The translations under genes and the position numbers were made by a program. Of a stretch of 64,000 bases of DNA, positions 41,164 through 41,856 are shown piece after piece; positions within the stretch are counted from its first letter, which is position 1; every line of letters begins with the position of its first letter. The DNA is from Escherichia phage Esco_phi_B-01. The notes beneath the pieces were generated by a model that had not been told where the DNA came from, did not search any database, and saw only the letters and a program-made list of their open reading frames with translations. The DNA lies in the sequence record OP292222.1; one strand, given 5' to 3'.

Positions 41164-41401
41164 ACAAACCGTTGAACAGAAACTGCAGTCTGAAATCGTT
41201 ATCCTGAAATCTCGTATCCTTGATACTCAGGACCATGCACAGCGTGTTAAAGCTGATTGTGACCTTCTTACCAAAGTACTTGGTGAGATTGCTGCAGTAG
41301 TTGGCGTTACCGGTGATTCTGTTAAAATCGAAGACCTGGTTGAAGCTGTTAAAGCCCTGGTTCCAGAAGCTTCTGATGAAGAATATTCTGACGAAGAATA
41401 A
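41156..41401 (+). CDS. 57A: Tail fiber assembly chaperone gp57A
   Basis: 81 aa coiled-coil, acidic C-terminus (T4 79 aa); position. Confidence 0.75.
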
Positions 41402-41856
41402 TGAAAACCGAAGATTTTGCTCAAGGTCTATACGTTGCTGCAAAATTCTCTGAATTGACTTTAGATGCGCTGGAAAATCTTCAGCGCACTTTAAAGGTTC
41501 CTAATCCAGTTCCTCGTGAAAAATTCCATTCTACAATCTGCTATTCAAGAGTCAACGTTCCATACACCGTTGCATCCGGAAGTTTTGAAGTTGCTTCTAC
41601 AGGACATCTTGAAGTGTGGAAACATGGCGATTCTCCCGTCTTGGTACTGGTTCTCGATTCAGAGTATCTTAAATGCCGCCATCAGTATGCTCGTACCTTA
41701 GGTGCTACGCACGATTTCGATGATTATACCCCTCATATCACATTGTCTTATAATGTAGGACCTCTTACCTTTAGTGGAGATGTCCAGATTCCTGTCGTTT
41801 TAGATAGAGAATATAAAGAACCCTTGAAGCTCGACTGGGCCGAGGATTTAAAATGA
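41401..41856 (+). CDS. 57B: 2H phosphoesterase, gene 57B / Acb1-like
   Basis: 151 aa (T4 152); two H-x-T/S motifs (HSTICYS, HITLSYN); position after 57A. Confidence 0.75.

Follow-up and report, generated by a model that had tools for sequence, protein, structure and literature searches.

The closest described relatives of the gene considered here encode the Acb1 nucleases of phage T4 and of Erwinia phage FBB1. The T4 enzyme was found by activity-guided fractionation as the agent that degrades 3'3'-cGAMP, and in lysates of infected cells all cleavage of cGAMP is due to it (Hobbs et al. 2022, PMC9117128). Deletion of acb1 makes T4 >300-fold sensitive to CBASS, a bacterial immune system that signals alarm through cyclic nucleotides; when the enzyme is intact, its activity sets in about 15 minutes after infection and stops the effectors Cap5, Cap4, and CapV (PMC9117128). 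Acb1 cleaves cyclic di- and trinucleotides that contain A and leaves cGG, cA4, and 3'2'-cGAMP uncut (PMC9117128). Since nine of nine further Acb1 homologs that were assayed cleaved both 3'3'-cGAMP and cAAA (PMC9117128), the activity may be regarded as a property of the family as a whole. A transposon screen found T4 acb1 to be conditionally essential only on hosts that carry CBASS (HIDEN-SEQ preprint). The broad activity of the enzyme, which extends to cA3, exposes T-even phages carrying Acb1 to targeting by Panoptes guard systems of types I and II. Phages that escape Panoptes inactivate the gene, as in Bas35 escapers, which are mutated in acb1; a natural loss is seen in Bas43, which has a nonsense mutation (PMC13577387).

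Several residues of T4 Acb1 have been assigned roles (Hobbs et al. 2022, PMC9117128). The catalytic tetrad, two HxT motifs, consists of H44, T46, H113, and T115, and the double mutant H44A/H113A served as the catalytically dead control. Bases are stacked by Y12, W74, F107, and W147, and E141 contacts N6 of adenine (T4 numbering; PMC9117128). Acb1 of FBB1 is available as an apo structure (PDB 7T26) and in complex with 3'3'-cGAMP (PDB 7T27). The 2H superfamily that includes LigT and the CPDases (PF13563) has in common with Acb1 the two H-x-T/S motifs, independence of metal, and the 2',3'-cyclic phosphate (PMC9117128), but typical LigT proteins are far larger than Acb1, which possesses a dedicated pocket for cyclic oligonucleotides and a C-terminal lid. 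In T4, acb1 adjoins ipI, in what Hobbs et al. call an anti-defence neighbourhood (PMC9117128).

The window analysed here, a stretch of 64,000 nucleotides from Escherichia phage Esco_phi_B-01 (OP292222.1), contains at 41401..41856 (+ strand) an intact open reading frame that begins with ATG and encodes 151 amino acids, followed by a TGA stop. I regard it as nearly certain that this gene is the Dhakavirus ortholog of T4 gene 57B, i.e., acb1, and that it encodes a predicted 2H phosphoesterase that destroys CBASS signals. The preliminary description had placed at this site a 151-amino-acid protein with two motifs, and both the reading frame and the motifs are found in the ORF list and in the raw sequence: HSTICYS at residues 43-49 (codons 41527-41547) and HITLSYN at residues 112-118 (codons 41734-41754). 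Within them lie the first catalytic HxT motif, H43-S44-T45 (41527..41535, + strand, codons cat-tct-aca), which corresponds to T4 H44/T46, and the second, H112-I113-T114 (41734..41742, + strand, codons cat-atc-aca), which corresponds to T4 H113/T115. By themselves the two motifs would be weak evidence for an Acb1 identity, and it is homology that decides, since a protein of this length with six histidines is expected to contain about 0.8 matches to H-x-[ST] by chance. Four other open reading frames in the region, 41129-41443 and 41227-41424 on the - strand and 41301-41453 and 41516-41701 on the + strand, were rejected as spurious, as they lie inside the strongly conserved coding sequence of 57A and acb1.

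The surroundings of the gene are those of its T4 counterpart. Upstream lie gp2 (38890-39726), gp3 (39812-40402), gene 1, encoding dNMP kinase (40402-41163; Pfam DNMK, E=4.7e-90), and, directly adjacent, gene 57A, encoding the tail-fibre chaperone (41156..41401, + strand; Pfam GP57, E=1.7e-28). The same genes precede 57B in T4, so the position assigned to the gene in the preliminary description was right. The overall order is the canonical 2-3-1-57A-57B-internal proteins-tRNAs of T4, and its portion 3-1-57A-57B is kept in T4 and ten other T4-like phages, the jumbo phage SCTP-2 lacking it. The gene thus occupies the slot of T4 acb1, directly downstream of 57A and beside (in fact before) genes for internal proteins. 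The TAA stop of 57A (41399-41401) and the ATG of acb1 (41401-41403) share a single base in the string TAATG, an overlap of 1 nt, as compared to 4 nt in T4. Stop and start overlap in all six of the T4-like phages aligned, whether as TAATG or, in T4 and ValerieMcCarty04, in the ATGA-type arrangement.

At its other end, the gene overlaps by ATGA (41853-41856) the start of an ORF of 69 amino acids (41853..42062, + strand; phrog_23867, of unknown function), the first of three small ORFs in tandem. The second and third (42081-42335 and 42402-42638, both + strand) match phrog_3499 and phrog_8765, internal head/virion protein. All three begin with MKTY(S/Q)EF, the kind of N-terminus that is typical of T4 internal head proteins, and MKT-x-x-EF is common to T4 IPI (MKTFKEF). 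Three genes resembling those of internal proteins thus follow acb1 in the window, while T4 has ipI alone. The cassette looks like a hypervariable internal-protein or anti-restriction locus. Downstream of it, where T4 has its tRNA region, is a cluster of tRNA genes, Met-CAT, Asn-GTT, and Arg-TCT (44149-44381, + strand), three genes as compared to eight in T4. In UP19, the closest relative, the small-ORF cassette differs, with versions of 69, 78, and 90 amino acids, the first of its ORFs being unannotated and starting with GTG.

Because acb1 is joined to 57A by TAATG and to the first internal-protein ORF by ATGA, this tight packing suggests that it is probably co-transcribed with its neighbours and possibly coupled to them in translation. 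A promoter dedicated to acb1 cannot be named, since suitable signals are wanting near the gene: a scan of 38500-44500 for sigma-70 promoters gave 21 sites, not above the 17 +/- 4 expected by chance, the T4-type late promoter motif TATAAATA occurs on the + strand only at 38419, and the only match to a MotA box is at 44054. The scan of 38500-44500 also gave no convincing terminator between 57A and the internal-protein genes.

Homology identifies the protein without much ambiguity. The Pfam profile of Acb1 (PF23474) matches residues 8-149 across its entire length (profile positions 1-144 of 144) with E=8.8e-59 and a score of 197.8 bits, as compared to a cut-off of 27, which places the protein within the family. 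Among sequences of solved structure, the best match is Acb1 of phage FBB1 (PDB 7T26/7T27; E=4.2e-59, residues 9-148), with 66% identity in the family alignment. Comparison by BLASTP with T4 Acb1 (NP_049750.1) gives 128/151 identities (85%) with 0 gaps and E=4e-100. The assignment of the coding sequence draws together the reading frame, the Pfam match, and the homology to the T4 and FBB1 enzymes, and it upholds the initial reading of the gene as a 57B homolog with 2H motifs, similar to Acb1. There is also a remote similarity (E=0.0045) to PDB 9Q2G/9Q2Y, a 165-amino-acid "Anti-CBASS protein Acb1", over residues 7-118, a span that includes both histidine motifs. None of the NCBIfam models matches the 151-amino-acid protein.

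A search by tblastn of 50,697 phage records found homologs in 1,471 of them. The identical protein (100%) is present in five records representing four phages (JS10, UP19, CLB_P2, and the unannotated Dhakavirus CLBP2), and about 50 records, all from JS98-like Dhakavirus phages, are at least 95% identical, with the matches from Tequatrovirus falling mostly in the band of 80-90% identity. The gene is already known, therefore, in the sense that it is an ordinary copy of acb1 from a family that has been characterised by experiment, and GenBank already contains identical sequences. Since DNA identity to UP19, IME281, JS10, and JS98 is 97-98% over the 5.4 kb around the gene, the window is, by this measure, DNA of a Dhakavirus-type (JS98-like) T-even phage.

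Many of the names attached to the protein say something different. PHROG 755 is named "RNA ligase", and RefSeq and many GenBank records call the ortholog "RNA ligase" or "RNA 2',3'-cyclic phosphodiesterase". Taken at face value, these names would describe an RNA ligase, a LigT-like 2'-5' RNA ligase, or an RNA 2',3'-cyclic phosphodiesterase whose targets are RNA ends, such as those handled in tRNA repair. The protein does show a weak match to the LigT-type Pfam profile 2_5_RNA_ligase2 (PF13563; E=0.028), which reflects shared ancestry within the 2H superfamily, but at 14.9 bits the match is well short of the cut-off of 27 and is confined to residues 61-122, as against the far higher, full-length score of the Acb1 profile. 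On the basis of these two matches, the one partial and below threshold and the other full-length, the identity as an RNA ligase was rejected. Moreover, the T4 protein, 85% identical, is a nuclease of cyclic oligonucleotides that is needed only on CBASS hosts (PMC9117128; HIDEN-SEQ preprint), and no ligase activity is reported for Acb1 in the Acb1 literature examined. It is highly improbable that the protein works on RNA ends in place of cyclic signals, and the label "RNA ligase" looks like an annotation carried over from the name of the 2H superfamily.

The identification as Acb1 can be followed to individual residues. T4 gene 57B was taken from NC_000866 and translated for this comparison. 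The protein in the window (151 amino acids) is one residue shorter at its N-terminus than that of T4 (152 amino acids), and residue numbers in T4 are therefore those of the window plus one. The nine residues with described roles are all identical. The tetrad H43, T45, H112, and T114 aligns without gaps with T4 H44, T46, H113, and T115. Misaligned catalytic histidines had been named at the outset as the result that would count against the Acb1 reading, and the check, once run, went in its favor. The residues of the ligand pocket, assigned by alignment with T4 and with roles according to PMC9117128, are likewise the same in the two proteins: base-stacking Y11 (41431..41433, + strand; T4 Y12), W73 (41617-41619, + strand; T4 W74), F106 (41716-41718, + strand; T4 F107), E140, the contact to adenine N6 (41818-41820, + strand; T4 E141), and W146 of the C-terminal lid (41836-41838, + strand; T4 W147).

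More distant relatives were considered through a family alignment of 13 members, 30-85% identical, from phages of Escherichia, Klebsiella, Serratia, Acinetobacter, Aeromonas, Vibrio, Cronobacter, and Salicola. The histidine and threonine of both HxT motifs are invariant in the 13 homologs, down to 30% identity, as is P111 within P111-H112-x-T114. The complete set of invariant columns is G9, Y11, H43, T45, S49, V82, R93, G101, Y109, P111, H112, T114, and E137, and E140 is nearly invariant. The homologs of RB43-like phages (Pseudotevenvirus) are longer, 207 amino acids in both GAP161 of Cronobacter (L008:1162-1785) and KM3 of Klebsiella (L009:1159-1782), owing to a C-terminal extension of about 45-55 amino acids (…HIEHRGDKWVVLNHDRTKELGEYDSKEAAEKRLRQIEYFKHNG) that is absent from Acb1 of the T4 type.

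A model predicted by AlphaFold2 from the single sequence was unusable (mean pLDDT 43.6, pTM 0.32), so the fold is judged from homology to 7T26/7T27, which predicts a compact 2H phosphoesterase with a C-terminal lid. I took this fold as fixed, because a crystal structure exists at 66% identity. The FBB1 enzyme and the protein in the window have in common both HxT motifs and the tryptophan of the C-terminal lid. They differ in that FBB1 Acb1 has F in place of W73 (W74 in T4) and an insertion of one residue in the turn that follows.

At the nucleotide level, the gene is 73% identical to that of T4 (pS=0.74, pN=0.13). The value of dN is 0.145, and dN/dS is nominally about 0.05, an unreliable estimate as dS is saturated. 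The direction is clear despite the saturation, and the comparison indicates that the protein is under purifying selection. These values bear on whether the gene might be a decayed or repurposed copy (a catalytically dead protein, a sponge, or a gene on its way to becoming a pseudogene), a fate that is conceivable given that disruption of acb1 permits escape from Panoptes. Natural loss of acb1 does exist, as seen in Bas43 and, under Panoptes selection, in the Bas35 escapers (PMC13577387), and the homolog in phage Bp7 aligns by tblastn across only 134 of the 151 residues. The ORF in the window, however, is intact and full-length, it retains all of the catalytic and ligand-binding residues, its dN is low even though synonymous sites are saturated, and the same or a nearly identical protein (at least 95%) has been retained in about 50 Dhakavirus genomes. 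The probability that this copy has decayed or been repurposed is close to nil.

The 23 substitutions that separate the protein from T4 Acb1 are concentrated at the N-terminus (residues 2-8), at 56-58, and at 75-80. Of these clusters, the third lies in the turn after W73, where T76-Q-D-G-S-T81 of T4 is replaced by H75-G-D-S-P-V80, so that the substituted residues H75, G76, S78, P79, and V80 closely follow a residue that stacks on the ligand. The cluster could modulate specificity, but the same turn is also variable in FBB1 Acb1, where it has an indel and the enzyme is active. It is conceivable, though I consider it very unlikely, that the Dhakavirus substitutions in this turn and at 56-58 have shifted the range of substrates and produced a functionally distinct variant of Acb1. 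A shift of this sort might admit signals such as those with G only or with 2'-5' linkages, or it might instead narrow the range so as to spare the decoy nucleotides guarded by Panoptes.

By analogy with its relatives, the protein most likely acts as a 2H phosphodiesterase that needs no metal and opens 3'3'-cGAMP, cUA, cAAA, and similar signals into linear products. Its presumed substrates, chemistry, and anti-CBASS phenotype are drawn from the experiments on the T4 and FBB1 enzymes; the text and supplements of Hobbs et al. (2022) and a search of the literature gave no record of a direct assay of the ortholog from JS98, JS10, or Dhakavirus. The product would be a small 2H phosphoesterase, the size of a monomer, acting on cyclic di- and trinucleotide messengers of CBASS with at least one adenosine (3'3'-cGAMP, cUA, cAAA, cAAG). 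The ligand would be held in a U-shaped pocket formed by Y11, W73, F106, and W146, with the C-terminal lid closing over it and E140 reading N6 of the adenine. Held in this way, the ligand would be strained, leading the 2'-OH of the adenosine to attack the 3'-5' bond. The bond cut would be the 3'-5' bond on the 3' side of adenosine, by metal-independent acid-base catalysis through H43-x-T45 and H112-x-T114, and the reaction would pass through a 2',3'-cyclic phosphate intermediate to a linear product with a 3'-phosphate, such as GpAp. The linear product would fail to activate the effectors of CBASS, and abortive infection would not be triggered.

A standard T-even anti-CBASS nuclease in a phage of the Dhakavirus type matters little beyond annotation. 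The annotation is not without consequence, as most public records of the protein still bear the misleading label "RNA ligase" or the label "hypothetical protein". The gene is also useful in predicting host range on E. coli that carry CBASS, type III CRISPR (cA3), or Panoptes, for example in the selection of candidates for phage therapy.

Elsewhere in the window, an ORF of 92 amino acids (56301-56579, + strand) is by homology a counterpart of Acb2/Vs.4, a sponge of cyclic oligonucleotides (66% identity to T4 Vs.4; Pfam PF24729, Acb2_Tad1_hairpin, E=4.7e-16; PDB 7UQ2, "Vs.4", E=1e-29). By these similarities the phage carries both of the known anti-CBASS genes of T4, acb1 and Acb2/Vs.4, 14.4 kb apart. 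A homolog of denV, which encodes endonuclease V (54700-55113, + strand), is 97.8% identical in protein sequence to that of T4, and genes near it are only 56-86% identical (nudE 61%, e 74%, regB 59%, tk.4 56%, ipIII 86%). The difference between denV and its neighbours suggests that the denV segment was recently exchanged between the Tequatrovirus and Dhakavirus lineages. A second lysozyme-like match, 42% identical to T4 e, lies at 36788-37279 on the - strand; since it adjoins gene 53, it presumably represents the lysozyme domain of gp5, the baseplate hub.
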